Positions 5,746-56,113 are shown, counted from the stretch's first letter. The stretch is DNA of 64,000 bases from Patescibacteria group bacterium (GCA_038065415.1 JBBTRA010000006.1:15262-79261); one strand, 5' to 3'. Program-made: numbers and translations. The notes: generated by a model not told the origin, from the letters alone.

Positions 5746-7494
5746 ATGCTCGTCGAAGATACCCAGCTGTACAAATTCATCCTGGACTCCGGACTCGTTT
5801 CCAAGGAGGACCTTGAAGATGCGCGCAAAGAGGCCGACAAGAAGGGAAAACGCCTCGGTGCTATTCTGGTAACCCAGGGCAAGATTACGGCCGACAATCT
5901 ACGCCGTATGGAGGCATACTGTCTCGGCATCCCTTTCGTTGATCTAAAGGGCAGGAAGATAGATTTTGATACACTCTCGCTCATTCCAGAGCCGATCGCT
6001 CGTGGACACAGCATTGTTGCTTTCAAGAAAACAGACAGCTCGCTCGAGGTCGCTATGCTCGATGTGAACGACCTTTCGGCTATCGATTTCATCAAGAAGA
6101 AGGTCAATCTCAAGATCCAGCCACGTCTCACTGATTCGGACTCTATCAAAGAAGTGCTGGTGCAGTATCAAAAGAGTCTCAAAGCAGAATTTGGAGATCT
6201 CATCCAGAAAGAGACGGCCACACTGAAGACTATCGCCGAAGATGCGGGAGACTCCACTTCCGAGGCAGACATGAAGAAGTTGGCAGAGGATCTGCCAGTT
6301 GTGCGCATCGTTGATACGCTCATCAAGCATGCTGCTATCCAAAATTCGTCCGATATCCATATAGAACCAATGGAGGATCAGGTGCTCGTCAGGTATCGTA
6401 TCGACGGTCTGCTTCACGATGCGATGGTTCTGCCGCGTCAGGCTGGACCATCCGTATCCGCTCGTATCAAAGTGCTCTCCAACCTTAAGCTCGATGAGAA
6501 GCGCCTTCCGCAGGATGGTCGTTTCAAAGTAGACATGAATGGGGAGAAAGTTTCATTCCGTGTCTCGATATTGCCGACCTATTATGGTGAGAAGATCGTG
6601 ATGCGTCTCCTCCGTGAGAGTATTTCCGGATTTACGCTGGAGTATCTCAATTTCCATGGGGAGGGACTTGAGCGCATCCACAAAGCTCTCAAGCAAACGA
6701 CGGGTCTCATCCTCACTACTGGTCCGACTGGTTCTGGTAAAACCACGACCCTCTATACAATGCTTGATCTCCTCAATCAGCCTGATGTGAATATTTCAAC
6801 CATTGAGGACCCGATCGAATACCAGATGGCGCGCATCAATCAAACTGCTGTACGTCCTGATATTGGTTTTACTTTTGCAAGTGGTATCCGTACACTCGTC
6901 CGTCAGGATCCGGATATCATCATGGTGGGAGAGATCCGCGACAATGAGACTGCGGCACTGGCCGTCAATGCAGCCCTCACGGGTCACCTCGTGCTCTCGA
7001 CGCTCCATACCAATAGCGCTGCAGGCGCCATGCCACGCCTTCTCGATATGGGAGTCGAATCATTCTTGTTGGTGTCTACTCTCAATATCGTGATCGGACA
7101 ACGTCTCGTCCGTCGCCTCACAGACACCAAACAGCAGTACAAGCTCACTAAGGACGAATTTGCAGAGCTGGAAAGGCTTGCAGATATGGATCGCGTGCTC
7201 GCTGCTCTCAAAGCAGACAAAGTGATCAAGCCGAGTGATACATGGAAAGACCTCCCATTCTGGAAGGCTACTCCACAAGGAGATGATGACGGCTTCAAGA
7301 CTCGTGTTGGTATCCATGAAATTCTCAAGATGAGTCCGAGTATCAAGGATCTTGTCATGAAAGGAGCTACCTCGGCGGAGATAGAGGTGCAGGCCAAGAA
7401 AGAGGGGATGCTCACAATGTTGGAGGATGGTATCTACAAGTGTGTGACAGGATTGACCACGATAGAGGAGGTGTTGAGGGTGGTGAGCGAGTAA
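5746..7494 (+). CDS. pilB: Type IV pilus assembly ATPase PilB (GspE family)
   Basis: N-terminal GspII_E_N-like domain, Walker A GPTGSGKTT, Asp/His boxes. ATG 5746 sits 10 nt after an extended -10 TGATATAAT (5727-5735); the track start 5719 is a GTG. Confidence 0.9.
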   Translation: MLVEDTQLYKFILDSGLVSKEDLEDARKEADKKGKRLGAILVTQGKITADNLRRMEAYCLGIPFVDLKGRKIDFDTLSLIPEPIARGHSIVAFKKTDSSLEVAMLDVNDLSAIDFIKKKVNLKIQPRLTDSDSIKEVLVQYQKSLKAEFGDLIQKETATLKTIAEDAGDSTSEADMKKLAEDLPVVRIVDTLIKHAAIQNSSDIHIEPMEDQVLVRYRIDGLLHDAMVLPRQAGPSVSARIKVLSNLKLDEKRLPQDGRFKVDMNGEKVSFRVSILPTYYGEKIVMRLLRESISGFTLEYLNFHGEGLERIHKALKQTTGLILTTGPTGSGKTTTLYTMLDLLNQPDVNISTIEDPIEYQMARINQTAVRPDIGFTFASGIRTLVRQDPDIIMVGEIRDNETAALAVNAALTGHLVLSTLHTNSAAGAMPRLLDMGVESFLLVSTLNIVIGQRLVRRLTDTKQQYKLTKDEFAELERLADMDRVLAALKADKVIKPSDTWKDLPFWKATPQGDDDGFKTRVGIHEILKMSPSIKDLVMKGATSAEIEVQAKKEGMLTMLEDGIYKCVTGLTTIEEVLRVVSE

Positions 7495-7499
7495 AAACA

Positions 7500-8717
7500 A
7501 TGTCCCACTTTATTTTCAAAGCAAAAAAGCCAACTGGCGAGATCTATTCTAGTGAGAAGGATGTCGCAGATCGCTACGAACTCTACAAGCTGATTCGCGA
7601 GAGTGGTGATGAGGTCGTTGAGGTCAAAGAAAAAGCCGCATCAAAAGGGGTGCATATGAACATATCGCTCAACATCTTCAAGCACGTCAAGACTATCGAG
7701 AAGATCAACTTTGCACGCAATCTGGGCTCAATGCTCGATGCGGGTCTTGCTCTGTCGCGTGCACTGTCGGTCATCGAGCGTCAGTCGCACAACAAGACAT
7801 TCAAAGGAATACTCACCGAGCTCATCGGAGAGATCAATCGTGGTGCAACATTCTCTGATGCCCTCGGAAAGCATCCCAAGGTTTTCTCTCCGTTGTTCGT
7901 GTCGATGGTCCATGCGGGCGAGCAGTCGGGAACACTCGCCGACTCACTCAAAGTTGTTGCGACCCAGATGGATAAGTCCTATGAACTCGAGCGCAAGGTC
8001 AGGGGGGCGCTCATATATCCGAGCGTTATCGTATTTGCTATGGTCATCATCGCTATTCTGATGTTCATCTTCGTTATACCAACTCTGATGAAGACATTCA
8101 CCGAACTCAATGTGCCGCTCCCAATTACGACACGCATCATTCTCGGTATCAGTAACGCATTTCAGAACTATGGACTCTTGGTGCTAGCGGGAGCTCTCCT
8201 TATCGGATTCGGATTTGTGTGGTGGGCAAAACAGAAGAGCGGCAAAAGGGTCATTCATGCGCTCATTTTGAAACTGCCTATCATCGGAGGTTTGGTCCAA
8301 GAGACTAACGCCGCCCGTACTGCCCGTACGATGGCTTCGCTTCTCAGCTCTGGTGTGGACGTAGTGGAATCCGTGAGTATCACCTCAGGTGTCGTACAAA
8401 ATGTGTATTTCAAAGATGTGCTCGACAAAGCGGGGGAAGCTATCAAAAAAGGGGAGCTCATGTCCAAGGTGTTCAATGATGCTACAAAATACTACCCAAT
8501 ATTCATGGCTGAGATGATGAGCGTCGGAGAAGAGACGGGTAAGACGGGTGAAATGCTTGCAGGAGTTGCGCGCTACTACGAGGATGATGTTGAACAGAAG
8601 ACTAAGGATATGTCGACGATCATTGAGCCGTTCCTCATGATTCTGATTGCAGCAGCAGTTGGTTTCTTTGCGGTCGCTATGATCTCCCCAATGTACTCGC
8701 TCGTGAATGTTATCTAA
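7500..8717 (+). CDS. pilC: Type IV pilus inner-membrane platform protein PilC (GspF family)
   Basis: Two GspF-like repeats and three TM segments; ATG at 7500 (MSHFIFKAKK) immediately after the pilB stop. Confidence 0.85.
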   Translation: MSHFIFKAKKPTGEIYSSEKDVADRYELYKLIRESGDEVVEVKEKAASKGVHMNISLNIFKHVKTIEKINFARNLGSMLDAGLALSRALSVIERQSHNKTFKGILTELIGEINRGATFSDALGKHPKVFSPLFVSMVHAGEQSGTLADSLKVVATQMDKSYELERKVRGALIYPSVIVFAMVIIAILMFIFVIPTLMKTFTELNVPLPITTRIILGISNAFQNYGLLVLAGALLIGFGFVWWAKQKSGKRVIHALILKLPIIGGLVQETNAARTARTMASLLSSGVDVVESVSITSGVVQNVYFKDVLDKAGEAIKKGELMSKVFNDATKYYPIFMAEMMSVGEETGKTGEMLAGVARYYEDDVEQKTKDMSTIIEPFLMILIAAAVGFFAVAMISPMYSLVNVI

Positions 8718-8719
8718 CT

Positions 8720-10534
8720 ATGAAGTTACATATATGGAGTAGGAAGCAGGGAGGTACAAAAAGAGGCTTCACTCTCACTGAAGTCCTTGTGGGCTCTGCA
8801 GTTTTCCTGATCATCGCACTCGCTGCATATAATGCATATGTGGGTCTTTTCCACCTGATCAACTTGAGCCAGTACAAGGTGCTTGCGGTTAGCCTTGCAA
8901 ACGAACAGTTTGAGATTGCTCGCAACATGCCCTATACGGATGTAGGTATCGAAGGTGGTATACCAGACGGTAAGCTTCAGCACATACAGACACTTGTGCG
9001 TGGCGGGGTAACTTTCACTGTTACCACAACGGTGCGCAACATTGATTTGCCATTCGATGGGACGATCGGCGGTAGTCCCAACGATATCTCTCCGGCCGAT
9101 AATAAATCTTTGGAAGTGGCAGTGTCATGTATCGGATGTAGGGATATGCAGCCTATCCGATTGACTGGGCAGATTGCCCCGAAAAATCTAGAGACCGCCT
9201 CAAACAACGGAGCTCTGTTCATCAGAGTTTTTGATGCAAATGGCCAGCCGGTACAGGGAGCTTCCGTTCATGTGGAGAATATAGCTACGACAACAACGAC
9301 TATCGTGATCGATGATGTCACTGATGCGACGGGCATGCTCCAGCTCATCGATGTTCCTCCGGATACAGAAGCATACCGAGTGGTCGTAACAAAATCCGGG
9401 TATTCAACAGATAGGACATATCCTCCAGGAGGTGTAGGGAACCCAACTCCATCCAAGCCGGATGCTACGGTGATCGTACAGCAAGTGACGCAGGTTAGTT
9501 TCGCAATCGATCGCATCGGTTCTCTCGAAATATCGAGCGTGACACCTCTCTGTGTAGTCGTTCCTAATTTTGATTTTTCTCTGGCAGGGTCGAAGCAAAT
9601 TGGTACCAGTGTGCCCAAATATTCGCAAAACCTCTCAACTGGAGCTGGTGGTACATTGCTGCTCTCGTCGATGGAGTGGGATACGTATACGATGACCCCG
9701 ACTGATAGTGCATATGATGTCGCCGGTCTTAATCCGCTCAATCCTATCACCGTCAATCCGGGAGCTGCACAGCAGGCGCAGATCATCGTCGTGCCCGACG
9801 CACCACTTGGTCTGCTCGTTACTGCTAAAGATAACGCTACTCAACTGCCGATATCTGGCGCCGAGGTGACGCTCACTAAAGTAGGATTTAGCGAAGTCCT
9901 CACTACTGGTAAAGGATATATCAATCAGACCGACTGGTCTGGTGGGGCAGGGCAAGCAACTTCATCTAATGTAGCAAAGTATTTTCAGGATGATTCCAAT
10001 GTTGATGTTTCAGTGAGTGTGGGAGAGATTCGTCTCAAAGAGGTATTCGGAGAATATAATCCATCGGGAATACTCGAGTCTTCCTGGTTCGATACGGGAT
10101 CAGAGAGTAACTTTTATTCGCTGGTCTGGACTCCATCGGACGCTCCTGCTCTTGCTGGTTCCGATGCGGTCCGTTTCCAGATTGCGACTGCGAGCACGTC
10201 AGAGCCAACTTCGTGGACATTCAGAGGTCCTGATGGAACAGGTGCGACATACTATTCGGTCTCTGATTCTCCGGTTGCCGCGATTCATAATGGAGACCAA
10301 TTTTTCCGCTACAAGGTGTATCTTTCTACAGAAACTGCCACAGTGACGCCGAGCATCTCGGACGCTGCGTTCACCTTCACTTCTTCCTGTACGCCTCCGG
10401 GTCAGGTTATATTTTCAGGACTCGATGCGGGCACTTATCACATCACCATAACAAAGTCAGGGTATGCACAGTATGATCAAGATGTTGTCGTGAGCAGTGG
10501 CTGGATGGAAGTGCAGGCTGCGATGGCTCCATAA
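8720..10534 (+). CDS. Large prepilin-like protein with a class III signal and repeated beta-sandwich (carboxypeptidase-regulatory-like) domains; candidate pilus tip or minor pilin
   Basis: N-terminus KRG|FTLTEVLVGSAVFLIIALA carries the G|FTLxE prepilin cleavage/methylation motif. 604 aa with repeats such as GQPVQGASVHVEN...VVVTKSGYS and GTYHITITKSGYAQYDQDVVV. Confidence 0.7.
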   Translation: MKLHIWSRKQGGTKRGFTLTEVLVGSAVFLIIALAAYNAYVGLFHLINLSQYKVLAVSLANEQFEIARNMPYTDVGIEGGIPDGKLQHIQTLVRGGVTFTVTTTVRNIDLPFDGTIGGSPNDISPADNKSLEVAVSCIGCRDMQPIRLTGQIAPKNLETASNNGALFIRVFDANGQPVQGASVHVENIATTTTTIVIDDVTDATGMLQLIDVPPDTEAYRVVVTKSGYSTDRTYPPGGVGNPTPSKPDATVIVQQVTQVSFAIDRIGSLEISSVTPLCVVVPNFDFSLAGSKQIGTSVPKYSQNLSTGAGGTLLLSSMEWDTYTMTPTDSAYDVAGLNPLNPITVNPGAAQQAQIIVVPDAPLGLLVTAKDNATQLPISGAEVTLTKVGFSEVLTTGKGYINQTDWSGGAGQATSSNVAKYFQDDSNVDVSVSVGEIRLKEVFGEYNPSGILESSWFDTGSESNFYSLVWTPSDAPALAGSDAVRFQIATASTSEPTSWTFRGPDGTGATYYSVSDSPVAAIHNGDQFFRYKVYLSTETATVTPSISDAAFTFTSSCTPPGQVIFSGLDAGTYHITITKSGYAQYDQDVVVSSGWMEVQAAMAP

Positions 10535-10549
10535 GGTATAATCAAGCTG

Positions 10550-11173
10550 ATGAAGTTCACAGAATCACAACGTGCGCAGAGTAACGGATTCACTCTGGTG
10601 GAGGTGCTTGCATCGATCTCCATTCTTGTGGTGGTCATGATTGCGGTGAGCTCTTTTCAGTATAATGTCATCAACTACAATCGTTCGTCGGCAGTATCTC
10701 TTACCAACGCTCAGGAGGCTCAATCTCTCCTGAAGGTCATGTCCAAAGAAATCCGTTCAATGGAACCGAGTTCAAATGGGGCGTATCCGATCGCGTCCGC
10801 AGGAACAAGCAGTCTGACCTTTTTTGCTGATATTGATAGCGATGGTACAAAAGAGCAGGTCCGCTACTATATTTCGACCACCACAGTGTTTCGCGGCACT
10901 ATCAAGCCGACGGGATCGCCGCTTGCATATATGGGCGCTGAAATAAGGAGAACACTTGCGACGGGCATTCGTAATTCGAGTACGACACCCATATTCGAAT
11001 ATTTCGATGGTACATATGCGGGCACGTCGACTCCTATGACGTATCCACTCACTATTACCTCTATTCGCCTAGTCAAGATGAATCTCACGATAGATACTGA
11101 TCCGAGCAAAGCCCCGATATTGAGGACATTCACAACTCAGGCGGGATTGAGAAATCTCAAGGATAATCTATAG
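10550..11173 (+). CDS. Prepilin-type N-terminal domain protein (minor pilin / pseudopilin)
   Basis: SNG|FTLVEVLASISILVVVMIAV motif; 207 aa. Confidence 0.7.
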   Translation: MKFTESQRAQSNGFTLVEVLASISILVVVMIAVSSFQYNVINYNRSSAVSLTNAQEAQSLLKVMSKEIRSMEPSSNGAYPIASAGTSSLTFFADIDSDGTKEQVRYYISTTTVFRGTIKPTGSPLAYMGAEIRRTLATGIRNSSTTPIFEYFDGTYAGTSTPMTYPLTITSIRLVKMNLTIDTDPSKAPILRTFTTQAGLRNLKDNL

Positions 11174-11177
11174 CACC

Positions 11178-30413: not shown

Positions 30414-33400
30414 ATGAAAAAATCAATCTTCTCGTTCGTCATCCCGCTCGCGCTCTTCTCGCTGGCGGTTTTTGCTGCACCGGGGAACGTTGGGGCGCAG
30501 ACCTATGAATGTCCGGTAGGGTATACGTGCGTTCCTGCGAGCACGAGCACTCCTACTATAACAGTACTTTCACCTAGTGGAGGAGAGGTGTATTCACTTG
30601 GTAAAGGAATACTCGTGACATGGACAAGTCAAAATATAGCATCAGACCAGTCTATGACTATTGGGTTGCGAAATACGGCGACGGGCAAAGATTACTGGGT
30701 AGCGGATACTCTCAATGATGGTAACGAGATTATTTCCGTAGAGAAGGTGTCAGAAGCTTTAGAAGCCGGCATGTATAAGTTATTTATAAAAACAGCCATT
30801 TTTATTAATGGCGATAGTATTCATGGTTGGAGCAATTCATTTACCCTGACCTCTTCGACAAATCCCCCGACTGTCCCTTCGGTTTCCGTATTCTCCCCAA
30901 AAGCCGGCGAGATACTGGTTCAGGGTACACAAATACACATAGGTTGGAAAATGAACCAGTTTCCGTTGACTCAAAAATTGAGGATTGATCTTATGGTAGT
31001 TTTGGGAGATGCTCAAAATGGCAATATTGGCAAACAAATAGCGCTCGATGTTCCTAATACTGGCTCCTACGTCTGGACCGTGAAGTCGATAGAGCCTTTC
31101 TTTGATTCTGAATCCAATAGGATGGTAACTCCTATAGGTAAATATACGATTATGGTTTCTTGTGCGTATAATGAAGCGGGGTGTAATATGACACCGAACT
31201 TCATAGAAAGTGGAGTATTTAATATCGCCTTCCCAGTTACCCCTGTCCCTTGCTACACCTTCTCCACTAACCTTCAGCTCGGTTCACGGGGCGCTGATGT
31301 CGCTGCTCTGCAGACATTCTTGGTTGCTAAGGGCTTCAAGATTTCTGATCTCTCGGTCGGCCGCGGTTCCGAAAAGGGTTATTTTGGTCGCTCTACTTTC
31401 GAGGCACTCAAGAAATATCAAGAGAGCGTTGGCCTTCCAGCAACAGGATTCTTTGGTCCTCTGACACGAGCCAAGGTTAATGCGGACTGTTCAAATCCGT
31501 CGCCAGCTGAAGTTACGCTCACTGCTCTTCAGGTTGGGTACGAAGGCCAGTATCCCGCCTTCACCATATCTGCATCGTCTGCAAATAAGGTTCCAAGCTA
31601 TTGGGATTTGAAACTGGACTGCCCTAAGGGGGTCGACGCGATGATGAAGGGGGGAGGATGCGGTGCAACCTCACGTTTCATGGGATCTCTGCTCAACCTG
31701 ACATCTCTCACATTCAATAATCCAGGTAGGACCGAGGCGAGAGTTACCGTTACGGCGTCAGCCTATGACACTGCGGGTGCGCGCATCGGTCAAGCGAGCA
31801 TGCCTATAGTTGTTCCGGTCAATACGACTTTGAGCAAGAACTCAGTTAAGGTTACTCGTCCAGCAGCCGGTGAAGTGCTGAGCACAGGTATGCAGTACAA
31901 GATCGTTTGGACCACAAACTCTCTCGACAAAGACGCACTCTTTGACATCACATTGTTTGCAGACAATGGAAAAGGTTTGATTGCAGAAGGTCTTACGACG
32001 GCGCAGGCGAGCTGTACAGGCGTGAATTTTGAGAAAAAAGGAGGCCCTCTCTATACCTGTATTACAGGGTGGACACCGACCGAAGGGTCAGTGAAGGCTC
32101 AACTTGCTGTTAGCAAGCGCGGTACGAGCGAAGTTGGATATTCGGGTAGCTTTTCCATAGCATTCCCAGTGACTCCAGCAATAAACCTCGTGTCGATTCC
32201 GAATAGCTCAACTATTCCAAATAGTTTTGACTACGTTATTACTTCTGCGGGATCTGCATTTGATCGGATTGTGTTGCGTGCGGAATGTAATGACGGAGAA
32301 ATTTCTATTGGATCAAAGGGGGGTATGTTCTGCGGAGAGAATATTACAATAAATCTCACCGCCCCGGCAGGCAGGTATGTATTTCCGGTCACTTTCGAAA
32401 GCAAGGATGGCAAGAGCCATACAGTTGGAATGACTGTGACGGCGTACACAGGTGCTAGTATCGTAGGTGCGGACAAGGACGCTGTGACTGTCACTCCATC
32501 TACAAATCCACCAAAGCCTGCCATTCACACAATTATTTCGCCTAATGGAGGTGAGACCTACAATACAGGCGACACCGTTAACATCAAGTGGAGCCCTTCG
32601 GGAACTTCTGGTGATACAGTGAAGATCGAAGTCGGCTATGTTCATCCTGATAGCACCTATCCTGGTGGCACATATGTAGAGGATTGGATTATTGATAAAA
32701 CCGCGAATACAGGATCCTACAGTTGGGTCATACCTGAATATTATGGTACCGGTATCCGTACAGGTTCATTCTCAATCAAAGTTACTTCTGTCGCGAATGG
32801 CATGGATTATTCGGACAATAAGTTCACTATAAAACAGGGTGTTAACAGGCCAAACATAGTTGTTTCAAAGCCGGCTAACGGTGATGTGTATAAGAAGGGA
32901 GCTACGGTAAATATAGTGTGGCCATCTTCAGGTGATTCATATGGTGCTTCGTTGTTGAGGGTTGAGGATCCGTTGTTCCTCAGGTTTATGCTCAATACCG
33001 GAGGACTGAATGGTAATCTCACGTGGACGGTGCCTACGGATATACCAGATGCAAAGGATTACTACATACGAATAAACGAAGGAGTGTACCGCAATAAGAC
33101 AGGGTACAGTGGTATCTTCTCTGTTGGTTCAGATGTGCCTCCAGCTCAACCTACCATCAATGTTGTCACCCGTCTTGGTGGCCGTGTCTTGTCTTCGAGC
33201 GCTACAAATCCATGCGTGTCGAGCCTTGCTGGTCCGACAGGGAACAATACTGCAGGCTGTGTACGCACACTCACCAATCAGGCTCCTGGTACATACTCGG
33301 TAGTCTGGTACGGTGGGTATCCTGCAGGAGCTGATACGAGCAAGAAGCCAGTCATCACAGGAGCCCAGACGCTCGGTAGCAGTCCGATAACCTTCTACAT

Positions 33401-33500
33401 TGACTTCAGTCCAAAGCCGATCATCGAGGTCTACAATGGATCGAGCATATCTGCTTCTATCTGGGATGCAATCAATGAGTACTGGGAGAATAACCCATAA
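30414..33500 (+). CDS. Giant secreted surface protein with five Ser/Thr-rich GPI/Kre9-like repeat modules and one peptidoglycan-binding domain
   Basis: Signal peptide MKKSIFSFVIPLALFSLAVFA. Repeats of the type SPxGGExxxxGxxxxIxW: VLSPSGGEVYSLGKGILVTW, FSPKAGEILVQGTQIHIGW, TRPAAGEVLSTGMQYKIVW, ISPNGGETYNTGDTVNIKW, SKPANGDVYKKGATVNIVW. PG_binding_1-like LGSRGADVAALQTFLVAKGF...ALKKYQESVGLPATGFFGPLTRAKV. Confidence 0.6.
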   Translation: MKKSIFSFVIPLALFSLAVFAAPGNVGAQTYECPVGYTCVPASTSTPTITVLSPSGGEVYSLGKGILVTWTSQNIASDQSMTIGLRNTATGKDYWVADTLNDGNEIISVEKVSEALEAGMYKLFIKTAIFINGDSIHGWSNSFTLTSSTNPPTVPSVSVFSPKAGEILVQGTQIHIGWKMNQFPLTQKLRIDLMVVLGDAQNGNIGKQIALDVPNTGSYVWTVKSIEPFFDSESNRMVTPIGKYTIMVSCAYNEAGCNMTPNFIESGVFNIAFPVTPVPCYTFSTNLQLGSRGADVAALQTFLVAKGFKISDLSVGRGSEKGYFGRSTFEALKKYQESVGLPATGFFGPLTRAKVNADCSNPSPAEVTLTALQVGYEGQYPAFTISASSANKVPSYWDLKLDCPKGVDAMMKGGGCGATSRFMGSLLNLTSLTFNNPGRTEARVTVTASAYDTAGARIGQASMPIVVPVNTTLSKNSVKVTRPAAGEVLSTGMQYKIVWTTNSLDKDALFDITLFADNGKGLIAEGLTTAQASCTGVNFEKKGGPLYTCITGWTPTEGSVKAQLAVSKRGTSEVGYSGSFSIAFPVTPAINLVSIPNSSTIPNSFDYVITSAGSAFDRIVLRAECNDGEISIGSKGGMFCGENITINLTAPAGRYVFPVTFESKDGKSHTVGMTVTAYTGASIVGADKDAVTVTPSTNPPKPAIHTIISPNGGETYNTGDTVNIKWSPSGTSGDTVKIEVGYVHPDSTYPGGTYVEDWIIDKTANTGSYSWVIPEYYGTGIRTGSFSIKVTSVANGMDYSDNKFTIKQGVNRPNIVVSKPANGDVYKKGATVNIVWPSSGDSYGASLLRVEDPLFLRFMLNTGGLNGNLTWTVPTDIPDAKDYYIRINEGVYRNKTGYSGIFSVGSDVPPAQPTINVVTRLGGRVLSSSATNPCVSSLAGPTGNNTAGCVRTLTNQAPGTYSVVWYGGYPAGADTSKKPVITGAQTLGSSPITFYIDFSPKPIIEVYNGSSISASIWDAINEYWENNP

Positions 33501-34971: not shown

Positions 34972-35081
34972 AGACGCAAGAGAGCACACTGTTTTCTGAG
35001 TGGTTATGTCGTGTCGGTACACTACACATCAGTATACCGTTCTGCATAACCACTCAGAAAACAGTGTGCTCTCTTGCGTCT
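34972..35081. repeat. Long perfect palindromic element, copy A: 37-bp arms around a 36-nt loop
   Basis: Left arm 34972-35008 (agacgcaagagagcacactgttttctgagtggttatg) is the exact reverse complement of right arm 35045-35081. Loop tcgtgtcggtacactacacatcagtataccgttctg. Lies between map and ndk. Confidence 0.9.
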
Positions 35082-40052: not shown

Positions 40053-40170
40053 AAACGCAAGGGTGCGAGATATGTATTTTCTGGGAGGTTATGTAGTGTC
40101 AGTACACGAAACTTTAGGGAACCGTTCTGCATAACCTCCCAGAAAATACATATCTCGCACCCTTGCGTTT
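40053..40170. repeat. Long perfect palindromic element, copy B: 41-bp arms around a 36-nt loop
   Basis: Left arm 40053-40093 (aaacgcaagggtgcgagatatgtattttctgggaggttatg) is the exact reverse complement of right arm 40130-40170. Loop tagtgtcagtacacgaaactttagggaaccgttctg is 26/36 identical to the copy-A loop. Sits in the infC 5' region. Confidence 0.9.
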
Positions 40171-48027: not shown

Positions 48028-48101
48028 CCGCCCTTAGCTCAGTTGGTTAGAGCACAGAGCTTATACCTCTGGGGTCCTTGGTTCGAATCCAAGAGGGCGG
48101 A
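48028..48101 (+). tRNA. tRNA with anticodon UAU (tRNA-Ile reading AUA)
   Basis: Cloverleaf: acceptor ccgccct/agggcgg, D-arm gctc..gagc, anticodon stem cagag/ctctg with loop cTTATac (anticodon T48062-A-T48064), T-arm cttgg-ttcgaat-ccaag, discriminator A; CCA not encoded. Confidence 0.8.
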
Positions 48102-48161
48102 CAGGTTTTTGCACAGCTTCTATTGTTGACACGGTGATCTACATGGTAGAATAGAACCTAC

Positions 48162-48743
48162 ATGAAACGCGGCTTCACACTGATAGAACTCTTGGTTGTT
48201 ATATCCATCATGAGCATGCTGAGCAGTATACTTTTTGCCTCAATTGCTTCTGCGCGTATGAAGGGGAGAGACGGGCTCAGGATATCTCAGCTCCATCAGA
48301 TAGATCTTGCGGTACAACTCTATATGACATCGAACAACAGGGCTCCTGATCTTCAGGGAACTTGTCCTTCTTCTGCAACGCCAGATAATTCAACTGTTAC
48401 CAATTGTGTCGCGAATGCTACCACCAACTCGACAGCATGGGATCGATTCAAGTCGGACATCCAACCATATATGAAGACGGTTCCAAGTGATCCGTGTATA
48501 GCAAATAGCTCGTGTATAAGTGGGGCATCTGGATACACGCTTGGATATACCTATGTAGCTCCTGCTGCAGTGAAATATCAGTGCGCCGAGGATTCGGGGG
48601 GCACATGTCCACAGACCAGTACAGTGCTCAATCAGTACTATCAACTCTACGCTCCGCTTGAGAGACAAAATATGCCTACAGGGGTAAAGTCTCTCGGTTC
48701 TGCGTTCTTCACACCACCATCTCCTGGAGGATATGGCTTCTAG
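48162..48743 (+). CDS. Type IV pilin (prepilin with MKRGFTLIELLVV leader)
   Basis: Class III signal MKRG|FTLIELLVVISIMSML; C-terminal Cys pairs; shares the motifs GYTYVAP..YQLYAPLER with the three downstream pilin paralogs. Confidence 0.85.
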   Translation: MKRGFTLIELLVVISIMSMLSSILFASIASARMKGRDGLRISQLHQIDLAVQLYMTSNNRAPDLQGTCPSSATPDNSTVTNCVANATTNSTAWDRFKSDIQPYMKTVPSDPCIANSSCISGASGYTLGYTYVAPAAVKYQCAEDSGGTCPQTSTVLNQYYQLYAPLERQNMPTGVKSLGSAFFTPPSPGGYGF

Positions 48744-50205
48744 GTACATGTCCATCTTACGTGTGCCACGGGTATGGCTATATATAGGGGTTGCAACTTT
48801 TTTGGTTGCAGCTGCATTTATCTGGCTACCTTCTGTTCGTGTTGTATTGCACTCGATCGTCAATGTATTTGCAACTGGTCGAACAGGTACCAAGGCGCTG
48901 ATATTCATGGCGTATGTGATATCAGTTTCAGGTATCCTCTATGTGCGTTCTAAGAAAACAGAGTCTACGCATACGCTACGGTACTGGAAGGTGTTCACTG
49001 CTACGAGCGCTCTTGGTGCGTATGTTCTTAATTTTTTCACATATCTGTGGACGATGAAGCTCTGGCATATCCCGGTGTTCACGTATTCACTCATTTATAA
49101 CAACGGTTCATTCACATCATTTCAATTCGTACATAATCATGCAACTAAGGGAGCTATCGCTGTTCTGACACAGCTACTCCCAGAAGGGGTCTTCGGCCAT
49201 CTCGATGCAGGCACAGCTCTTCTTGGGATAATTCCGAATGCACTCTTATCGCTACAGGCGCTACTTGTTCTGGGATGCATCATCGGTATATACGGAATAT
49301 GGCATGCTGTGCTTCCAAGGATCACAGCTCTCTCTTCGAGACGAGCAGTAGTATATGTAGCGATGTTGATCCTGAGTTCGTTCATGGTACTCAAGTCTCT
49401 TCTTGATGGGGGAATCTTCAGTTTTGAAGCTGTTGTCGGTTTGTCCTTCTTCTTTTTCCTCATATCGAAAGGTTCGACTCGGGCACGGAATACACTGCTC
49501 GTGGTCAATGGTGCATATTTCATCCTTCTTGGCTTACTGTATTGGGTGGGCTACTTTGCCACAGATAGTAACTATGGATATCATAATTTCTCTTTCGTCA
49601 CTATCTTGCTTGTAATGACAGCTTTGTATGGGATATATGAATTTGGGAAGACAAGGCTCACGATGCTCGTACTCATGATGGCGGTCATACCTCTGTGCGT
49701 TCAGGTGTACAACGGCTTGACTGTATTTGAGTACAGAAATATTTCGGTAGAAAAGGATGACATCGCGTACATTTTCTCATATGAGAACCTTGATATTCCG
49801 GGGTATACGTTGCGCCATAGTATAGGGAAGATCAATCTCTATACATTCTCGCCGAGGGAGCCTATGGCTATAGCGGACATCATCCCGCATACAGGGTTTG
49901 CTGACAATATGACGCCAGTTAGTGTTGCGTGGAAGACGTGCGTACCACCTGCGCCCCGAACGAGCTACACACTCAATGTTGTTTCTCCGAATGCGATCGA
50001 TATGGATAACGAGGTTACCCAGTTGTATCGAATGGACGCGGTACCACTTGGTACATATGACGATGGTTTTCATCGATACTCGGTCACTATATCGGCGCAT
50101 CCATGTTCGGTTCCTCAGCTCATCGTATTTGTACAAGAAATCTTAGCGAAGCATTTTGGGGGATTCGCTATATACGATATACAGCAGTTCGAAAACGGCG
50201 AATAA
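48733..50205 (+). CDS. Large polytopic membrane protein translationally coupled to the pilin (candidate pilin-modifying O-oligosaccharyltransferase-like enzyme)
   Basis: 490 aa with at least 10 TM helices and a soluble ~120-aa C-terminal domain; start overlaps the pilin stop. Function inferred from position only, by analogy to tfpO/pilO downstream of pilA. Confidence 0.5.
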   Translation: MASRYMSILRVPRVWLYIGVATFLVAAAFIWLPSVRVVLHSIVNVFATGRTGTKALIFMAYVISVSGILYVRSKKTESTHTLRYWKVFTATSALGAYVLNFFTYLWTMKLWHIPVFTYSLIYNNGSFTSFQFVHNHATKGAIAVLTQLLPEGVFGHLDAGTALLGIIPNALLSLQALLVLGCIIGIYGIWHAVLPRITALSSRRAVVYVAMLILSSFMVLKSLLDGGIFSFEAVVGLSFFFFLISKGSTRARNTLLVVNGAYFILLGLLYWVGYFATDSNYGYHNFSFVTILLVMTALYGIYEFGKTRLTMLVLMMAVIPLCVQVYNGLTVFEYRNISVEKDDIAYIFSYENLDIPGYTLRHSIGKINLYTFSPREPMAIADIIPHTGFADNMTPVSVAWKTCVPPAPRTSYTLNVVSPNAIDMDNEVTQLYRMDAVPLGTYDDGFHRYSVTISAHPCSVPQLIVFVQEILAKHFGGFAIYDIQQFENGE

Positions 50206-50206
50206 C

Positions 50207-50710
50207 ATGATGATTGATATACTACAGGCGGCCATCATATTTGCGCTGCCATGTTGGGTGGCGAATATGGCATTTTCCCTCATTGTGCCCCTGAAGAGGG
50301 TAGTGCCTCTAGTGGCACAGATCGATCGACCACTTGATCACGGAGCGTCTTTGGGTGGTTCACGTATTTTTGGGGATTCCCGGAACTATGCAGGACTTAT
50401 TCTTGCGCTTGTTCTTGCATTATCGTGGGGGATTGCGGCACATGATCCACTGGTTGGAGCAAAGATTATGCTTACCTTTGTGGGGGCGGTGCTCGGCAGT
50501 TTCATCAAACGTAGGTTTAGGCTACGTTCAGGGCAGAAGATGCCCGTGCTCGATCAGCTTGATTATATGTTTGTAGTCGGAGGTATCTGGTATTTTTTTG
50601 GTTTTGAGAGTGGGGCTGTTGTCTGCATGGCGATGCTGATCACCCTTATTGGTCAACCGACTATTTCGTATGTAGCTTTTTTGCTCCGGTTGAAGGACAA
50701 GCCTTACTAG
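50207..50710 (+). CDS. CarS/DUF46-like CTP-transferase family membrane protein (CDP-archaeol synthase / polyprenol-kinase-like)
   Basis: LPCWVANMAFSL, GSRIFGDSRNYAG and GAVLGSFIKRRFRLRSGQKMPVLDQLDYMF match the CarS (DUF46) signature GDxxGSFxKRRxxxxxGxxxPxxDQLDF. Confidence 0.6.
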   Translation: MMIDILQAAIIFALPCWVANMAFSLIVPLKRVVPLVAQIDRPLDHGASLGGSRIFGDSRNYAGLILALVLALSWGIAAHDPLVGAKIMLTFVGAVLGSFIKRRFRLRSGQKMPVLDQLDYMFVVGGIWYFFGFESGAVVCMAMLITLIGQPTISYVAFLLRLKDKPY

Positions 50711-50739
50711 CACCTCCACATTCGAAAGTATCTTTAGTG

Positions 50740-50890
50740 TTATACTATTCCCATGAAACGAGGCTTCACTCTCGTAGAACTCCTGGTGGTTATATCCATC
50801 GTATCGATGCTCGCTAGTATCGTGATGGTGCAGATTAGTCTTGCGCAAGCAAAAGGCCGTGATTCACTGCGTACACAGCAAATCAGGCAA
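50740..50890 (+). repeat. Near-identical ~150-nt block (promoter plus pilin 5' end), copy 1
   Basis: Matches 51645-51795 with about 5 mismatches, starting at the TATACT -10 box and running through codon ~45. Confidence 0.85.
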
Positions 50891-51607
50891 ATAGATACGG
50901 CTATGCAATTGTATGTAGAGACATATAAGAGGGCACCCTTGGCAGATAGTTTGACGGGGTGCGATATTCAGTCAGAAAATCCGACCGAATATGAGGATGT
51001 CTCTTCCTGCTTTGCAGTATCGACAAATGGGACTGAGACTCAAGAGCAGAATTGGGATACCTTGAGAACAGAACTTCAAGAATTCATACGGTTACCAGAA
51101 GATCCGTGTGGCACATGTGTTTCGGGGTCAGATGGATTTCTTATCGGGTATACATATGTTGCTCCCTATGCGATGCAGTACTACTGCTACACAACAGGGA
51201 CATGTATAGCGACCAATGAGTCCTATCAGGTGTACGCCCCCCTTGAGCGTCAGACGATGCCGACCGGTAGTGAAGGATCATCACAAAACTACGCATCTCC
51301 AAATCAGCCTCCCGCTTCATATGCTTTGAGTACGCCCACGGGCTTAGGAGCAATTCCATGGCAACCTCCTTCTAAACTGCTTTCATGGCAACCGTCGACA
51401 GGGGCACCTGAGGGTGCGTCAATACTCTATTATGTTCGAAAGGAAGGAAACCCTCAGGAACATCTGGTCGAAGGCACAACTTCTTTTTGGGCACGAGTCG
51501 GGGATTATGGGTGGATTGCTCCATATTGTTGGACTGTGCGCGCAGAGGATCCTGAAAATGGACTTTACTCGGATCGTAGTGAACCTTCCTGTGTATCAGC
51601 GCCGTAG
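50753..51607 (+). CDS. Type IV pilin paralog
   Basis: MKRG|FTLVELLVVISIV...; conserved SSCFAVS, GYTYVAP, YQVYAPLER motifs. Confidence 0.85.
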   Translation: MKRGFTLVELLVVISIVSMLASIVMVQISLAQAKGRDSLRTQQIRQIDTAMQLYVETYKRAPLADSLTGCDIQSENPTEYEDVSSCFAVSTNGTETQEQNWDTLRTELQEFIRLPEDPCGTCVSGSDGFLIGYTYVAPYAMQYYCYTTGTCIATNESYQVYAPLERQTMPTGSEGSSQNYASPNQPPASYALSTPTGLGAIPWQPPSKLLSWQPSTGAPEGASILYYVRKEGNPQEHLVEGTTSFWARVGDYGWIAPYCWTVRAEDPENGLYSDRSEPSCVSAP

Positions 51608-51644
51608 TACCCAGGTGAGTTTGGAAAGCTAGCATGACCATATG

Positions 51645-51795
51645 CTATACTATTCCCATGAAACGAGGCTTCACTCTCGTAGAACTCCTGGTGGTTATAT
51701 CCATCGTATCGATGCTCGCTAGTATCGTGATGGTACAGGTTAGTTTGGCGCAAGCAAAAGGCCGTGATTCACTGCGTACACAGCAAATCAGGCAG
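51645..51795 (+). repeat. Near-identical ~150-nt block (promoter plus pilin 5' end), copy 2
   Basis: See copy 1. Confidence 0.85.
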
Positions 51796-52911
51796 ATAGA
51801 TCTTGCGACTCAGATGTATATAGAAGCGAATGGTCATGCTCCGTATCTAGAAGATCTCCAAAACGATGTTCCGCCGACCCTTTGTGACATTCAGTCTGAA
51901 ATTCCTGAAGAAAGCGAGGCATCGGCATGCTTTGCTGTGTCGTCTCAGGGTGTAGATACCCCAGCAGGGAGGGCGTGGGAAGCTTTCAAGAAAGATCTCG
52001 CGCCATACATGAATGTGCCCAATGATCCTTGCGGCAGTTCATGTGCCTCGGCTTCGGATTTTCCGATCGGATACACGTACGTGTCGCCACTTGCTATGCA
52101 GTACTACTGTTCCTATTCCGGCTGTATTGTGACTGACGATTCGTATCAGCTCTATGCTCCGTTGGAACGCGAGTCGAACCCGAGTGGTAATAGTGGATCT
52201 TCGAGCAACTATTCCCATAATCCAGGGAGTTCATCGGGAGGAGATGGCGGGCAAGATGATTCTGTACCTCCGAGCGTGCCAGCTAATGTAGACGTTACCT
52301 TGAATTCACTCTGGACCGGAGGGTCGATTGGTATCGAGATCACTTGGGACGCATCTACAGACGATGATTCGGGAATTGCGGGCTACAAAGTATCGCCGTT
52401 GGATGATAACTCATATAGTGGCTATGATGATGAAGGAAATCCGATACCTACGGATCCAACACCGGGAACTTCTCGAGATACGCACGGCCTGATCTGGTCG
52501 ATGGGCATGAGTTTCTGTTATAGCGTCAGAGCCTATGATACTGCAGGCAATCCATCTGGGCCGAGCGATGAGGTTTGTACCCCGAATATACCAGCATTCT
52601 TCGGGGCCCCTACGGGCGTTACCGCTATCCGTCAAGGTAATCAGGTAACGGTCAATTGGAATGCGGCTGCAAACCTAACATCTGACGCGGTCGTCAAATA
52701 CCAGGTCTATCATCCAGGCGGCTTCCTCATAACAGAGACCACCCAGTTGTCTGCTACCTATGATGCGGTGGGTTGGGGTAACTGCGTCAGGATTGCTCCG
52801 GTGGGGTATGTCAATTTTGAGGGTTCTGAATGGCTCCTGTATAACGACAATAGTGGTTTCGGACTACCTCCAATCTCAAGTGCTACCACATGTGCATCTC
52901 CAGGTATTTAA
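51658..52911 (+). CDS. Type IV pilin paralog with a C-terminal fibronectin-III-like extension
   Basis: ATG 51658 sits 6 nt after TATACT (the track start 51634 is rejected). N-terminus is identical to the previous pilin for ~45 aa. C-terminal about 180 aa contains PPSVPANVDVT...SIGIEITWDASTDDDSGIAGYKV, which is FN3-like. Confidence 0.8.
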   Translation: MKRGFTLVELLVVISIVSMLASIVMVQVSLAQAKGRDSLRTQQIRQIDLATQMYIEANGHAPYLEDLQNDVPPTLCDIQSEIPEESEASACFAVSSQGVDTPAGRAWEAFKKDLAPYMNVPNDPCGSSCASASDFPIGYTYVSPLAMQYYCSYSGCIVTDDSYQLYAPLERESNPSGNSGSSSNYSHNPGSSSGGDGGQDDSVPPSVPANVDVTLNSLWTGGSIGIEITWDASTDDDSGIAGYKVSPLDDNSYSGYDDEGNPIPTDPTPGTSRDTHGLIWSMGMSFCYSVRAYDTAGNPSGPSDEVCTPNIPAFFGAPTGVTAIRQGNQVTVNWNAAANLTSDAVVKYQVYHPGGFLITETTQLSATYDAVGWGNCVRIAPVGYVNFEGSEWLLYNDNSGFGLPPISSATTCASPGI

Positions 52912-52923
52912 TTTATAACGAAT

Positions 52924-53754
52924 ATGAACGGTATACATACTAAAGCATTCACTTTGATAGAGCTCCTGGTAGTCATCTCCATTCTCTCAATGTTGGCCAG
53001 CGTGATACTCGTCAATACCGCCTCGGTGCGCGCATCAGGCCGAGATGGTGTGCGTGTGCAGCAGATACGCCAGATAGATCTGGCAGTGAAGTTATACACT
53101 GAGGCGAATGGGCATGCTCCATTGTTGACTGGTTGTGATGTTCAGTCTCAGAATCCATCTGTGTCGCAAGCGCAGGCCTCGTCTTGTTTCGCAGTTTCAA
53201 CCGGAGGACTAGCATGGGATTCTTTTAAGAGTCAGATTGCTCCATATATGCCACAGACACCAGGCGATCCTTGTCCTACAGGGTGCACATCTCCTTCAGG
53301 TTTTCCTATCGGATATGCGTATGGAGCACCGCTCGCCATGCAATATTATTGCGGCCTGGCCGGGTATTCGTGCACCGCTAACAGGAAGTCGTATCAACTA
53401 TATACACCACTTGAGAAGAGTCCCAATCTCGTCGGCACAAAAGATGTAGGTGACTTTTTCACACCAACGATGGCTGCGCCCGTTATAACAAATTTCAATT
53501 CATTCCCGTTCTTCAATGGACCGCAACAAACCCCAGGACGTCATTTTGTCTGGCAAGTTACCAATGCGCCGAGCTGCATACTATCGGATAGTTTTGGTAC
53601 TATTCCTATAACAACAGTGCTGATTAGTGAGGCGGGGAATGGGTCACAGTCATTCATAGGAGCAAGCTTCTTTGGTCCGAACGATATAGTGACTGTTACG
53701 TGTTCGACGGCTGGAGGTACTGCTACAGCTCAATATATAGTTCCTGCGCAGTAG
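52924..53754 (+). CDS. Type IV pilin paralog (Ala at the -1 position)
   Basis: MNGIHTKA|FTLIELLVVISILSML; conserved SSCFAVS, GYAYGAP, YQLYTPLEK. Confidence 0.75.
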   Translation: MNGIHTKAFTLIELLVVISILSMLASVILVNTASVRASGRDGVRVQQIRQIDLAVKLYTEANGHAPLLTGCDVQSQNPSVSQAQASSCFAVSTGGLAWDSFKSQIAPYMPQTPGDPCPTGCTSPSGFPIGYAYGAPLAMQYYCGLAGYSCTANRKSYQLYTPLEKSPNLVGTKDVGDFFTPTMAAPVITNFNSFPFFNGPQQTPGRHFVWQVTNAPSCILSDSFGTIPITTVLISEAGNGSQSFIGASFFGPNDIVTVTCSTAGGTATAQYIVPAQ

Positions 53755-53767
53755 GTTGTGAGCATTC

Positions 53768-56113
53768 TTATTCGAAGTGACTTTCTTTTGCTGATCGATC
53801 CACAACTTTTTTGAGCAATGGATATTTTCCGAGAGAGGTATCTTCGGCGATAAGCTTCATTGCCTCATTTCTCGCCGCTTCTACCATTTTGAGATTTTTG
53901 AGTGCTTCCATAGCTACATCTGAGACTCCCCATTGGCGTAGACCAGAGAGTTCACCGGCACCGCGCTGGGTGAGGTCGAGTTCGGCCAACTCAAAACCAT
54001 TCTTGGCTGTAGCGAGGGCCGTCAGACGCTCGATTGACTTGGCGGAATTGGTCTCAGTGAATGCATAACAGTAGGCCTGGTGCGCACTTCTCATGACGCG
54101 TCCGCGGAGCTGGTGGAGCTGGGCGAGACCAAACCGCTCAGCACCTTCGATGATGATGACTGTCGCGTTCGGTACATTGACTCCGACTTCAACGACTGAG
54201 GTGGCGCAGAGGATATTGATCTTACCAGATTTGAAGTCGGCCATTGCACGATCTTTTTCGTGAGGCTTCATCTTGCCGTGCAGGATACCGACTTCATATT
54301 CAGGGAATACCGACCGACTGAGACGAGCCGCTTCTTCCTTTACTGACTTGGCGATAACGGCTGCTTCTTTGTCCGGGTCGGGCTCATCGATGCGTGGACA
54401 GATGACATAGAGTTGTCTGCCGTCCGCGAGTTCTCTGCGGATCTTTTCATATGTTTCGCTACGCTTGTCCGGTAGAACGAGCTCGGTGATGATGGGCTTG
54501 CGTCCTGCAGGGCTCTGGTCGAGGATGGTGAGATCAAGGTCGCCATAAATAGTCAGTGCGAGGGTTCGTGGGATGGGTGTAGCGGTCATGGAAAGGAGAT
54601 GGGGAGCAAGTGCATTTCCGTGCTCCATGTTCTTCTGCACAAGTCGTTTGCGTTGGCCGATACCGAAGCGATGCTGTTCGTCGATGATGGCATATGCAAG
54701 CCGCTTGAACTTCACAGACTTCTGGATGAGTGCTTGGGTGCCTATGACTGCCGCGATCGAACCGTCGGCTACCCATTTTAAGAGTTGAGACCGTGATATA
54801 TCGGTCCAACTTTTTGGATTCACCTTGGAAGGGAACACGCGGCATCCGGAGCCTGTGATAAGTGCAATGCGTATCGGCATGTATGAGAAATACTGGATGA
54901 ATGATTCAAAATGCTGGGTGGCTAATATTTCCGTGGGACACATATATGCGATCTGAAGACGCGCGTTCATTACTGCATATGCAGTTGCTGCTGCGACGGC
55001 CGTCTTGCCAGAACCGACGTCTCCTTCGAGGAGTCTGGACATGGGCTGTTCACGTGACATATCGCCGACGATAGTCTCGATGGCTCTTTTCTGTGCATCA
55101 GTGGCCTGGAATGGGAAGCGGCGGATGAATTCATGCACATGTCCCATATCGGTCTCGAGAACGAATGAAGGGTACTGTTCGTAGAGCTTGCGAGCCTGTT
55201 GGCGTCCGAGCTGTATCATGAATATCTCTTGGAATGAGAACCGTTTGCGTGCAGACAAGGCATCATCGTGTTTCTGGGGAGCGTGCATCCAGATACATGC
55301 AGTCTTGATCCCTGGAAGGTTATATTTCTTCAGGATGTCCGCCGGAATGGGATCTTCGAGTGCATCCAAGATGCCTGTCTTGAAGAGCTTCTGTAGAGAA
55401 TGGTACATCCAAAGAGAGCTGATACCTCGGGATTCAGGGTAGACAGGATACAAGGTGTGAGATTCGCCATCAGTTCCGAAGAGTGAGTCGCCGACACCTA
55501 CCGGAAGTTTGTCGATGAGTTCGATTTTTGGGTTAGAGAAGTATAACTTCGCATTATCAGGCTCCACAAAAACAGGCTCTTCACCCACGATAGCCTTTGC
55601 TCGCATGGAGGAAGAGCTCGCAAAGGCTTCTTTTCTCGGCGTTGTGTTCGTGGTGAACGGGATACTATGTCCCAACGCCTCCGAAGAGGGATCAGAACCT
55701 ATTTTTGTTTCGCTTTCAATGCTCCTTACTTCTTTCCCCTTACTCCTCCGCTGACTGACCTTACCCTCGATACGGACGAGGGCGCCCTCGGGGGTCATTT
55801 TTGCGATATAGGGTTGATTGAACCAGATGCACTGGATCGTACCGCTCTCGTCTTCGACGGTTGCTGTGGCCATGGTCATCTTGGTCTTGAAACCCTTGGT
55901 TGCTTTGAGGTGGGTGATTTTGCCGAATATGGCAACCGCATCGCCTTTTTTGAGGGAGCTTATGCTCCGCGCCTCGGCTGTGTCACCATAGCGTACGGGA
56001 AAATGATAGAGGAGGTCTTCTAGGGTGTGTACACCAAGCTTCTTCAGTGCATCCTTCTGGATTGGTGTGATACGGAAATGCTCGGATACAGGTATATCGG
56101 GAGAGATGGGCAT
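53768..56113 (-). CDS. recG: ATP-dependent DNA helicase RecG (with a ~90-aa low-complexity insertion in the N-terminal wedge region)
   Basis: Helicase motifs GDVGSGKT, DEQHRFG and others; N-terminal wedge domain; 781 aa. Confidence 0.9.
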   Translation of the reverse strand: MPISPDIPVSEHFRITPIQKDALKKLGVHTLEDLLYHFPVRYGDTAEARSISSLKKGDAVAIFGKITHLKATKGFKTKMTMATATVEDESGTIQCIWFNQPYIAKMTPEGALVRIEGKVSQRRSKGKEVRSIESETKIGSDPSSEALGHSIPFTTNTTPRKEAFASSSSMRAKAIVGEEPVFVEPDNAKLYFSNPKIELIDKLPVGVGDSLFGTDGESHTLYPVYPESRGISSLWMYHSLQKLFKTGILDALEDPIPADILKKYNLPGIKTACIWMHAPQKHDDALSARKRFSFQEIFMIQLGRQQARKLYEQYPSFVLETDMGHVHEFIRRFPFQATDAQKRAIETIVGDMSREQPMSRLLEGDVGSGKTAVAAATAYAVMNARLQIAYMCPTEILATQHFESFIQYFSYMPIRIALITGSGCRVFPSKVNPKSWTDISRSQLLKWVADGSIAAVIGTQALIQKSVKFKRLAYAIIDEQHRFGIGQRKRLVQKNMEHGNALAPHLLSMTATPIPRTLALTIYGDLDLTILDQSPAGRKPIITELVLPDKRSETYEKIRRELADGRQLYVICPRIDEPDPDKEAAVIAKSVKEEAARLSRSVFPEYEVGILHGKMKPHEKDRAMADFKSGKINILCATSVVEVGVNVPNATVIIIEGAERFGLAQLHQLRGRVMRSAHQAYCYAFTETNSAKSIERLTALATAKNGFELAELDLTQRGAGELSGLRQWGVSDVAMEALKNLKMVEAARNEAMKLIAEDTSLGKYPLLKKVVDRSAKESHFE

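Follow-up and report, generated by a model that had tools for sequence, protein, structure and literature searches.

We analysed a stretch of 64,000 nucleotides (nt) from a Patescibacteria group bacterium (GCA_038065415.1, JBBTRA010000006.1:15262-79261; hereafter the window), which contains four complete type IV pilin genes, called pilins 1 to 4 here (Table 1). Pilins 2 and 3 begin with a shared 5' block, and very probably this block was made by partial gene conversion between old tandem pilin paralogues. It is near-identical even at synonymous sites while the two genes are saturated elsewhere, which, together with the comparison of orthologues, points to recent recombination or conversion of the N-terminal module. 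We found a tract which includes the synonymous sites and ends at a breakpoint, groupings which are incongruent between tract and remainder (clearly so for the tail comparison, less so for the heads), and recurrence in other lineages, as partial conversion is expected to leave them. The event is concerted evolution over evolutionary time, not a programmed switch.

The two copies of the block (50738-50896 and 51643-51801) lie on the same strand with an offset of 905 nt, as found by ungapped comparison and a repeat finder. They cover 159 nt with 6 differences (96.2% identity over 159 nt in BLAST). Each copy starts with the TG of a TGnTATACT motif, 15 nt 5' of the ATG, and ends at codon 48, and no similarity between pilins 2 and 3 was found 5' of this TG. 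Counted from the ATG, the mismatches are at -13, +77, +81, +87, +89 and +137, with mismatch-free runs of 89 and 47 nt inside the block. Only one of the six changes an amino acid (I30V), and 47 of the 48 N-terminal residues are identical between the two proteins.

Beyond codon 48 the picture changes at once. In the codon alignment of pilin 2 with pilin 3, codons 1-48 have 97% nt identity against 57% for the remaining pilin head, and the corresponding values at third positions are 94% and 34%. A maximum chi-square scan peaked at 73.5 exactly at the end of codon 48, and none of 500 permutations gave a value as high. An earlier note on this DNA had proposed recent gene conversion or recombination in the constant N-terminal region, which the synonymous sites and the orthologue comparison support, and its estimate of about 5 differences in 150 nt, reaching to about codon 45, was essentially right. 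The sharp boundary it described is confirmed by the breakpoint test, but the genes do not diverge completely afterwards as it had stated: the heads are still homologous, with 50% amino acid identity and a common Cys/Trp/Tyr pattern, and it is only between the two C-terminal tails that sequence similarity is undetectable. It had also spoken of four tandem pilins; there are four genes, but pilin 1 is set off from pilins 2-4 by two non-pilin genes.

The orthologues show how unusual the block is. Over the first 48 residues, the orthologous pilins L5_c409 and L8_298 share 85-92% of amino acids with pilins 2 and 3, but only 40-52% of third positions. Among the residues that agree, the fraction with a common codon is 0.93 between pilins 2 and 3 versus a mean of 0.42 between genomes. 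Since the N-termini of the orthologues are alike while their synonymous sites are scrambled, protein constraint alone is insufficient to explain the nt identity of the block. Past codon 48, the third positions of pilins 2 and 3 agree no better than in any other pair of family members. Besides, the tail of pilin 3 (247 amino acids, aa) matches that of L5_c409, from the related genome L005, with 69% aa and about 73% nt identity, while the flanking FtsH and RecG genes of the same two genomes have 73-76% nt identity with 41-47% at third positions. The tail has thus diverged as much as these flanking genes, which indicates that pilin 3 with its tail predates the split of the two lineages. The block of pilin 3, in contrast, is 72% identical to the block of its orthologue versus 97% to that of its neighbour pilin 2.

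The trees differ accordingly between the parts of the genes. Pilins 2 and 3 are paired with 100% support in the tree of the 5' block, and they stand apart in the protein tree of the heads, where pilin 3 joins pilin 4 and L5_a269 (77%) and pilin 2 falls loosely with the group of L5_c409, L8 and L94. Just 3' of the block there is a patch, GCGAATGG(T/G)CATGCTCC, encoding EANGHAP, which is nearly identical in pilin 3 (51815-51840) and pilin 4 (53093-53118). Given this patch and the head protein tree, pilin 3 may be a three-part mosaic.

For relatives, a full-length pilin alignment against species-representative genomes gave no close relative among the matches listed, which were dominated by generic pilin N-termini (Planctomycetota, Verrucomicrobiota and others), while a metagenome scan with the head domain as query gave 4 loci. 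The ftsH-recG site is syntenic in the relatives, and the number of pilins in it ranges from 1 to 4 in six genomes: 4 in this window, 3 in L005, 2 each in L007, L094 (also seen as L090 and L092) and L100, and 1 in L008. We compared the 5' tracts, synonymous sites included, of six adjacent tandem pilin pairs from five genomes. Besides pilins 2 and 3 (159 nt at 96%), a tract is present in the L007 pair (209 nt at 89%, with the breakpoint at codon 60 and 93% versus 57% identity on its two sides), the L100 pair (the first ~53 aligned nt at 96%) and the L005 pair (38 nt at 100%). No tract was found in the L094 pair, which is uniform at 72%, or between pilins 3 and 4 of the window. Given the tracts of L007, L100 and L005, occasional conversion of the 5' module between neighbours is a property of this gene family and no one-off.

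We propose the following course of events. Pilins 2 and 3 would be old paralogues arranged head to tail, and a recent non-reciprocal homologous recombination would have copied the 5' module from one to the other, namely the extended -10 element, the probably leaderless start, the signal peptide and the first 43 mature residues, which are most of the alpha-1 helix. As this assembly helix is predicted to cover residues 7-58, the tract falls inside it. Similarity between paralogues, which amounts to 78-88% over the first 48-69 nt and would be kept by purifying selection on the helix, could seed strand exchange of the RecA type, and the tract would end just past the conserved QIRQID codons, where similarity collapses. 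Unequal exchange at the same direct repeats may occur as well, and fits the 1-4 pilin copies of the relatives. The core promoter, the processing site and the polymerisation helix would be the same in pilins 2 and 3, whose production, cleavage and polymerisation by a single pilus machine should then be interchangeable. In this account we infer the dependence on RecA, the direction of transfer, the promoter activity, the leaderless initiation and the co-assembly of pilins 2 and 3.

As for the start of the module, no Shine-Dalgarno (SD) sequence was found 5' of the ATG of pilin 2 or pilin 3, and with a -10 element ending 6 nt before the ATG the transcripts are probably leaderless. A promoter scan of pilin 3 gave TGGAAA-18-TATACT with an upstream TG at 51622-51651. 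This layout is common in the window. A TAnnnT hexamer ends 5-9 nt before the ATG in 24 of 66 crudely called open reading frames (ORFs), often with a preceding TGn, against 10 ORFs with an SD-like motif; the ORFs starting at 16982, 19089, 21815 (minus strand), 36009, 44564, 50753 and 51658 are among those with such a layout. From these counts, leaderless transcription is probably the norm in this organism, and TATACT would not be specific to pilins. All four pilin genes have a start codon and a signal peptide, and pilins 1-3 have a -10-like element. Pilin 1 has promoter-like sites of its own (TTGACA and TGgTAGAAT), and its similarity to pilins 2 and 3 is only 78% and limited to the first 69 nt.

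Several points weigh against partial conversion or limit what can be said of it. Four of the six mismatches in the block fall within 13 nt, and such clustering may reflect two tracts or patchy repair. The neighbour-joining nt tree of the heads pairs pilins 2 and 3 weakly (50%) and the paralogues of L007 and L100 strongly, although that tree is built on saturated sites and the argument rests on the synonymous sites, the tail comparison and the head protein tree. A lineage-specific duplication, or whole-gene conversion at a low level, is still compatible with the heads, whose history is only partly settled, with a weak and ambiguous signal. Moreover, no genome of intermediate divergence was found by which the event could be dated, and donor and recipient are indistinguishable. 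Any functional benefit of homogenisation is conjecture, and the homogenisation may be a neutral by-product, the module being interchangeable.

Other origins of the block have to be weighed against this. There is a negligible chance that a collapsed or chimeric repeat in the assembly created it. The contig is metagenome-assembled, and the 89-nt exact run is longer than common k-mer sizes, but the copies differ at 6 positions and the tandem A-R-B-R'-C layout allows one consistent path only. A contig from 0.1-um-filtered groundwater of Hainich (ENA ERZ1292624), labelled as a Patescibacteria group metagenome-assembled genome (MAG) at NCBI, has the same sequence as the window, and two replicate assemblies match base for base over 20.8 kb save for a scaffold gap of Ns; a 14-nt indel between them was rejected as a strain variant, being this gap. 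Independently, the Logan contigs (k=31) of run ERR3858120 stop at the edges of the exact repeat, one ending at 50770 and another, unitig L103, beginning at 51765, which is 30 nt before the last mismatch (51795), as a true exact two-copy repeat would split the de Bruijn graph at this k. A recent duplication of the whole gene, followed by very fast diversifying selection past codon 48 with the N-terminus under purifying selection, is very improbable. It would suit pilin heads and tails, which are surface exposed and typically evolve fast, as well as the weak pairing in the head nt tree. However, third positions downstream are saturated at 34%, equal to any two family members, and selection on the protein cannot explain the contrast between this synonymous saturation and the 4% divergence of the block; the orthologue of the pilin 3 tail in another genome, at housekeeping-level divergence, also stands against it. 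The synonymous-site pattern thus largely refutes the duplication. Scarcely credible, too, is a constraint on the nucleotides themselves, by a regulatory DNA or RNA element such as mRNA structure, a leaderless translation signal or a regulator site. The block does start exactly at the promoter element, and the TGnTAnnnT motif is kept 5' of the orthologous pilins, but synonymous sites vary in the orthologues, as does the spacer between the -10 and the ATG (ATTCCC here versus TATTTGT, TAGCTCC and CACTTC), and as RNA the block folds about as well as shuffled sequences do (z = -0.5). At the gathering thresholds, Rfam matched only a transfer-messenger RNA and two tRNAs in the window and nothing in the block, and on the Rfam and folding results the block was dropped as an RNA element. 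Plausibly only the -10 motif is constrained.

The variable 3' part might instead have been imported as a cassette, through transformation and homologous recombination with the 5' blocks of consecutive pilins as homology arms. The highly variable content of the locus in relatives agrees with this, as do the tRNA-Ile gene and the pilus machinery within the same window and the fibronectin type III (FN3)-like modules of the tails, which look shuffled (L94_a401, a pilin of L094, has tail modules like those of both pilin 3 and pilin 2). Import is nevertheless unlikely: it leaves the 96% identity of the blocks within one genome unexplained, so that duplication or conversion of the block would still be required, and no donor-like sequence was found, the nearest non-self relative of pilin 2 being 48-66% identical. 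We also consider improbable that the block is the working substrate of programmed or high-frequency pilin variation, either of the pilE/pilS type or as a recombinational switch. In its favour, the direct repeat, 159 nt in size and mismatch-free over 89 and 47 nt, is long enough for RecA-mediated exchange, the pilin copy number of the locus differs among relatives, the paralogues look mosaic, and recG, whose product acts in gonococcal pilin variation (PMC3547852), adjoins the cluster. But all four genes are full length with their own start codon and signal peptide; tblastn and blastn searches with the variable parts found no silent, 5'-truncated pilin copies in the 64-kb window, and no guanine quadruplex (G4) motif (G3+N1-7 x4) exists on either of its strands. 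The repeats are direct, with no inverted repeats in the pilin cluster, and the genes within 10 kb carry no Pfam annotation of a recombinase. It is the constant region, and not the variable one, which holds the tract, and as both genes carry the same 5' module, exchange within the block cannot yield a new protein. The 6 differences accumulated in the block indicate that conversion is not continuous. Five contigs from Hainich samples carry the genes in one arrangement with zero single-nucleotide polymorphisms, minority variants being invisible in assemblies, and look-ups by exact protein, made for pilins 2, 3 and 4 and for the CarS-like protein beside them, gave nothing but the reference arrangement and unitigs broken at the repeat. 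The earlier note had seen here a substrate for antigenic variation as in Neisseria pilE/pilS, a means of swapping C-termini, and a locus for which strain variants might show alternative arrangements. The first idea is not supported, given the complete genes, the converted constant region and the lack of partial copies and G4 motif in the window; the second would have no effect, as both genes already have the promoter core and N-terminus in common and exchange there can only delete or duplicate pilin 2; and for the third no example was found in the five contigs. Its label "episymbiont" was set aside as an assumption about the organism which the data do not show. We give little weight to a further idea, in which RecA-mediated unequal exchange or repeated conversion yields subpopulations differing in FN3-tailed pilins and the 5' module is selected as a "universal adaptor"; if true, active exchange would be a cheap recombinational way for an ultra-small Patescibacteria cell to change its attachment specificity.

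The repeat also carries a warning for assembly, as it breaks assemblies made with short k. Short public contigs of relatives start about 115-140 nt 5' of a pilin gene (L094 1-140, L095 1-141 and L009 1-115). Repeated pilin 5' ends may be frequent break points of assemblies, and pilin copies in such MAGs may be under-counted for this reason.

Partial gene conversion between duplicated genes is a known type of event. In Salmonella, tufA and tufB reportedly evolve in concert in this way. Duplicated mtrA genes of methanogens do so as well, according to the available part of the source (PMC4632066). To the extent that this part describes them, the pilins resemble tuf and mtrA in having a near-identical tract, synonymous sites included, in old paralogues, with a sharp breakpoint and recurrence in separate lineages, and in the clustering of paralogues within a genome for the tract only. 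Unlike in those genes, the pilin tract comprises a promoter core and 48 codons (an "assembly handle"), while the displayed parts stay different. In Neisseria, the variable part of one complete expressed pilE is converted by partial silent copies, and a G4 element and a small RNA promoter are required (PMC2188307, PMC2188579, PMC3547852). The present locus has type IV pilins, non-reciprocal recombination, a constant N-terminus and a variable C-terminal part in common with pilE/pilS; here, however, all copies are complete, three of four with a promoter-like element, it is the constant region which is converted, and the window has no silent copies or G4. The PilA1-PilA6 pilins of Haloferax volcanii have a near-identical hydrophobic H-domain needed for assembly, and each can form pili (PMC4371748). 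Here too, at the sequence level only, several pilins of one genome have a near-identical N-terminal assembly domain and differing exposed parts, but the archaeal genes are dispersed, and only two of the four paralogues here share the block. The tfpQ/tfpI inversion of Moraxella bovis and Moraxella lacunata and the R64 shufflon are said to use inverted repeats, a recombinase (Piv and Rci, respectively) and a single promoter-bearing N-terminus. As in these, the recombination site is inside the pilin coding sequence and a constant N-terminal part is joined to alternative C-termini; the pilin locus differs from them in its direct repeats, in the separate 5' end of every gene and in the lack of a recombinase gene in the vicinity. 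Saccharibacteria TM7x, also of the Patescibacteria, is described as having multiple pilins whose N-terminal features are conserved while their globular or C-terminal domains are diversified, and those of its pilins that are large and bear additional C-terminal domains are implicated in binding to the host (PMC11623550). A term search of that paper gave no occurrence of "recombination" or "tandem". The present lineage differs from TM7x in belonging to another class of Patescibacteria and in being known here from sequence alone. Our literature searches turned up neither a description of gene conversion among pilins of Patescibacteria nor a paper specifically on tandem pilin N-termini evolving in concert.

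Type IV pili are believed to play a central part when Patescibacteria (the Candidate Phyla Radiation, CPR) attach to a surface or a partner cell, and the pilins of these bacteria diversify rapidly. At this locus, conversion keeps the "handle" uniform (core promoter, signal peptide and assembly helix) while heads and FN3-like tails diverge and reshuffle, which is useful context for annotating the pilin repertoires of CPR. It is ordinary concerted evolution seen in a new lineage, an uncultivated one of groundwater Patescibacteria; no new mechanism is revealed, and the locus is unsuited as evidence for antigenic variation in CPR.

Table 1. Features of the pilin locus and of the pilus machinery, with coordinates in the window
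Feature	Coordinates	Strand	Remarks
Type IV pilus machinery	5746..11173	+	PilB-like ATPase (T2SSE), PilC-like platform (T2SSF), two further pilin-like genes (N_methyl)
Pilin 1, 193 aa	48162..48743	+	short paralogue without tail domain; orthologue L5_b234
Two non-pilin genes between pilins 1 and 2	48733..50710	+	490-aa multi-pass membrane protein; 166/167-aa CarS-like (CDP-archaeol synthase family)
Block copy A	50738..50896	+	extended -10, 6-nt spacer, ATG, signal peptide (MKRG/FTLVE, cleaved at the slash), codons 1-48 of pilin 2
Extended -10, TGtTATACT	50738..50746	+	ends 6 nt 5' of pilin 2 ATG; read from sequence
Pilin 2, 284 aa	50753..51607	+	one C-terminal beta-sandwich (FN3-like) domain; Pfam N_methyl, TIGR02532
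Block copy B	51643..51801	+	5' end of pilin 3
Extended -10, TGcTATACT	51643..51651	+	pilin 3 equivalent
Pilin 3, 417 aa	51658..52911	+	two C-terminal FN3-like domains; Pfam N_methyl, TIGR02532
Pilin 4, 276 aa	52924..53754	+	other N-terminal subtype, without block; orthologue L5_a269

The four genes code for type IV pilins by several features: the cleavage motif, the "lollipop" of helix and head in the models, and the presence of PilB- and PilC-like machinery genes. PF07963 is above its cutoff in all four, and TIGR02532 matches pilins 1-3. The prepilin cleavage and methylation motif is followed by the hydrophobic stretch (MKRG, cleavage, then FTLVELLVVISIV). For the start of pilin 3, the ORF finder offered an alternative ATG at 51634; 51658 is favoured by the homology with pilin 2 and by the public gene call. 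Pilin 4 starts 12 nt past the end of pilin 3. The AlphaFold2 (AF2) models of pilins 2 and 3 have a predicted local distance difference test (pLDDT) score of 83 and 81, respectively, with the alpha-1 helix followed by a small alpha/beta head; Cys pairs are conserved in the heads, as invariant Cys columns in the alignments. The tails are predicted to be beta-sandwich domains (at 196-281 in the AF2 model of pilin 2), FN3-like for pilin 3 by Foldseek, whose best matches in PDB are tandem fibronectin type III domains (E 2e-7). The tail modules (51320-51604 and 52270-52908 in the window) appear shuffled among genes and genomes. For instance, L94_a401 (L094 141-1346) contains one module like the first domain of pilin 3 and a terminal module like the tail of pilin 2, the latter two with the common motif CWTV(R/K)A(E/Q)D...SEP.CV.

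Between pilins 1 and 2, the gene of the 490-aa membrane protein has its first 11 nt in common with the end of pilin 1, and the CarS-like gene comes next. No Pfam or NCBIfam family matched the 490-aa protein; its position recalls the pilin-modifying membrane enzymes beside pilA in Pseudomonas (TfpO/TfpW). The same pair of genes also stands between pilins in L005 (7968-9946). The pilus machinery is about 40 kb 5' of the pilin cluster, with the PilB- and PilC-like genes at 5746-8717. The whole pilB-pilC operon (5746-12692, plus strand) also codes for two pilin-like proteins, one of 604 aa with a CarboxypepD_reg domain and one of 207 aa, and about 1.6 kb 5' of it a divergent gene codes for a sigma-54-type activator with AAA+ and Fis-type helix-turn-helix domains (3018-4109, minus strand). 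Directly 3' of the pilin cluster lies recG (53768-56113, minus strand), convergent with it. This adjacency is kept in all related loci examined and is probably plain synteny.

A tRNA-Ile gene with anticodon TAT (48028-48102) lies 60 nt 5' of pilin 1; few bacteria have this anticodon, as a rule reading AUA with a lysidine-modified CAT tRNA. Elsewhere in the window, a secreted 1028-aa protein (30414-33500) has peptidoglycan-binding and immunoglobulin-like (Big_7, Kre9/KNH) domains. Besides, two related hairpins of about 110 nt each (34972-35081 and 40053-40170) are 81% alike and 5 kb apart, with arms of 37-44 nt (98-100% complementary), loops of 30-36 nt and no match in Rfam; they could be a small repeated element or a structured RNA.

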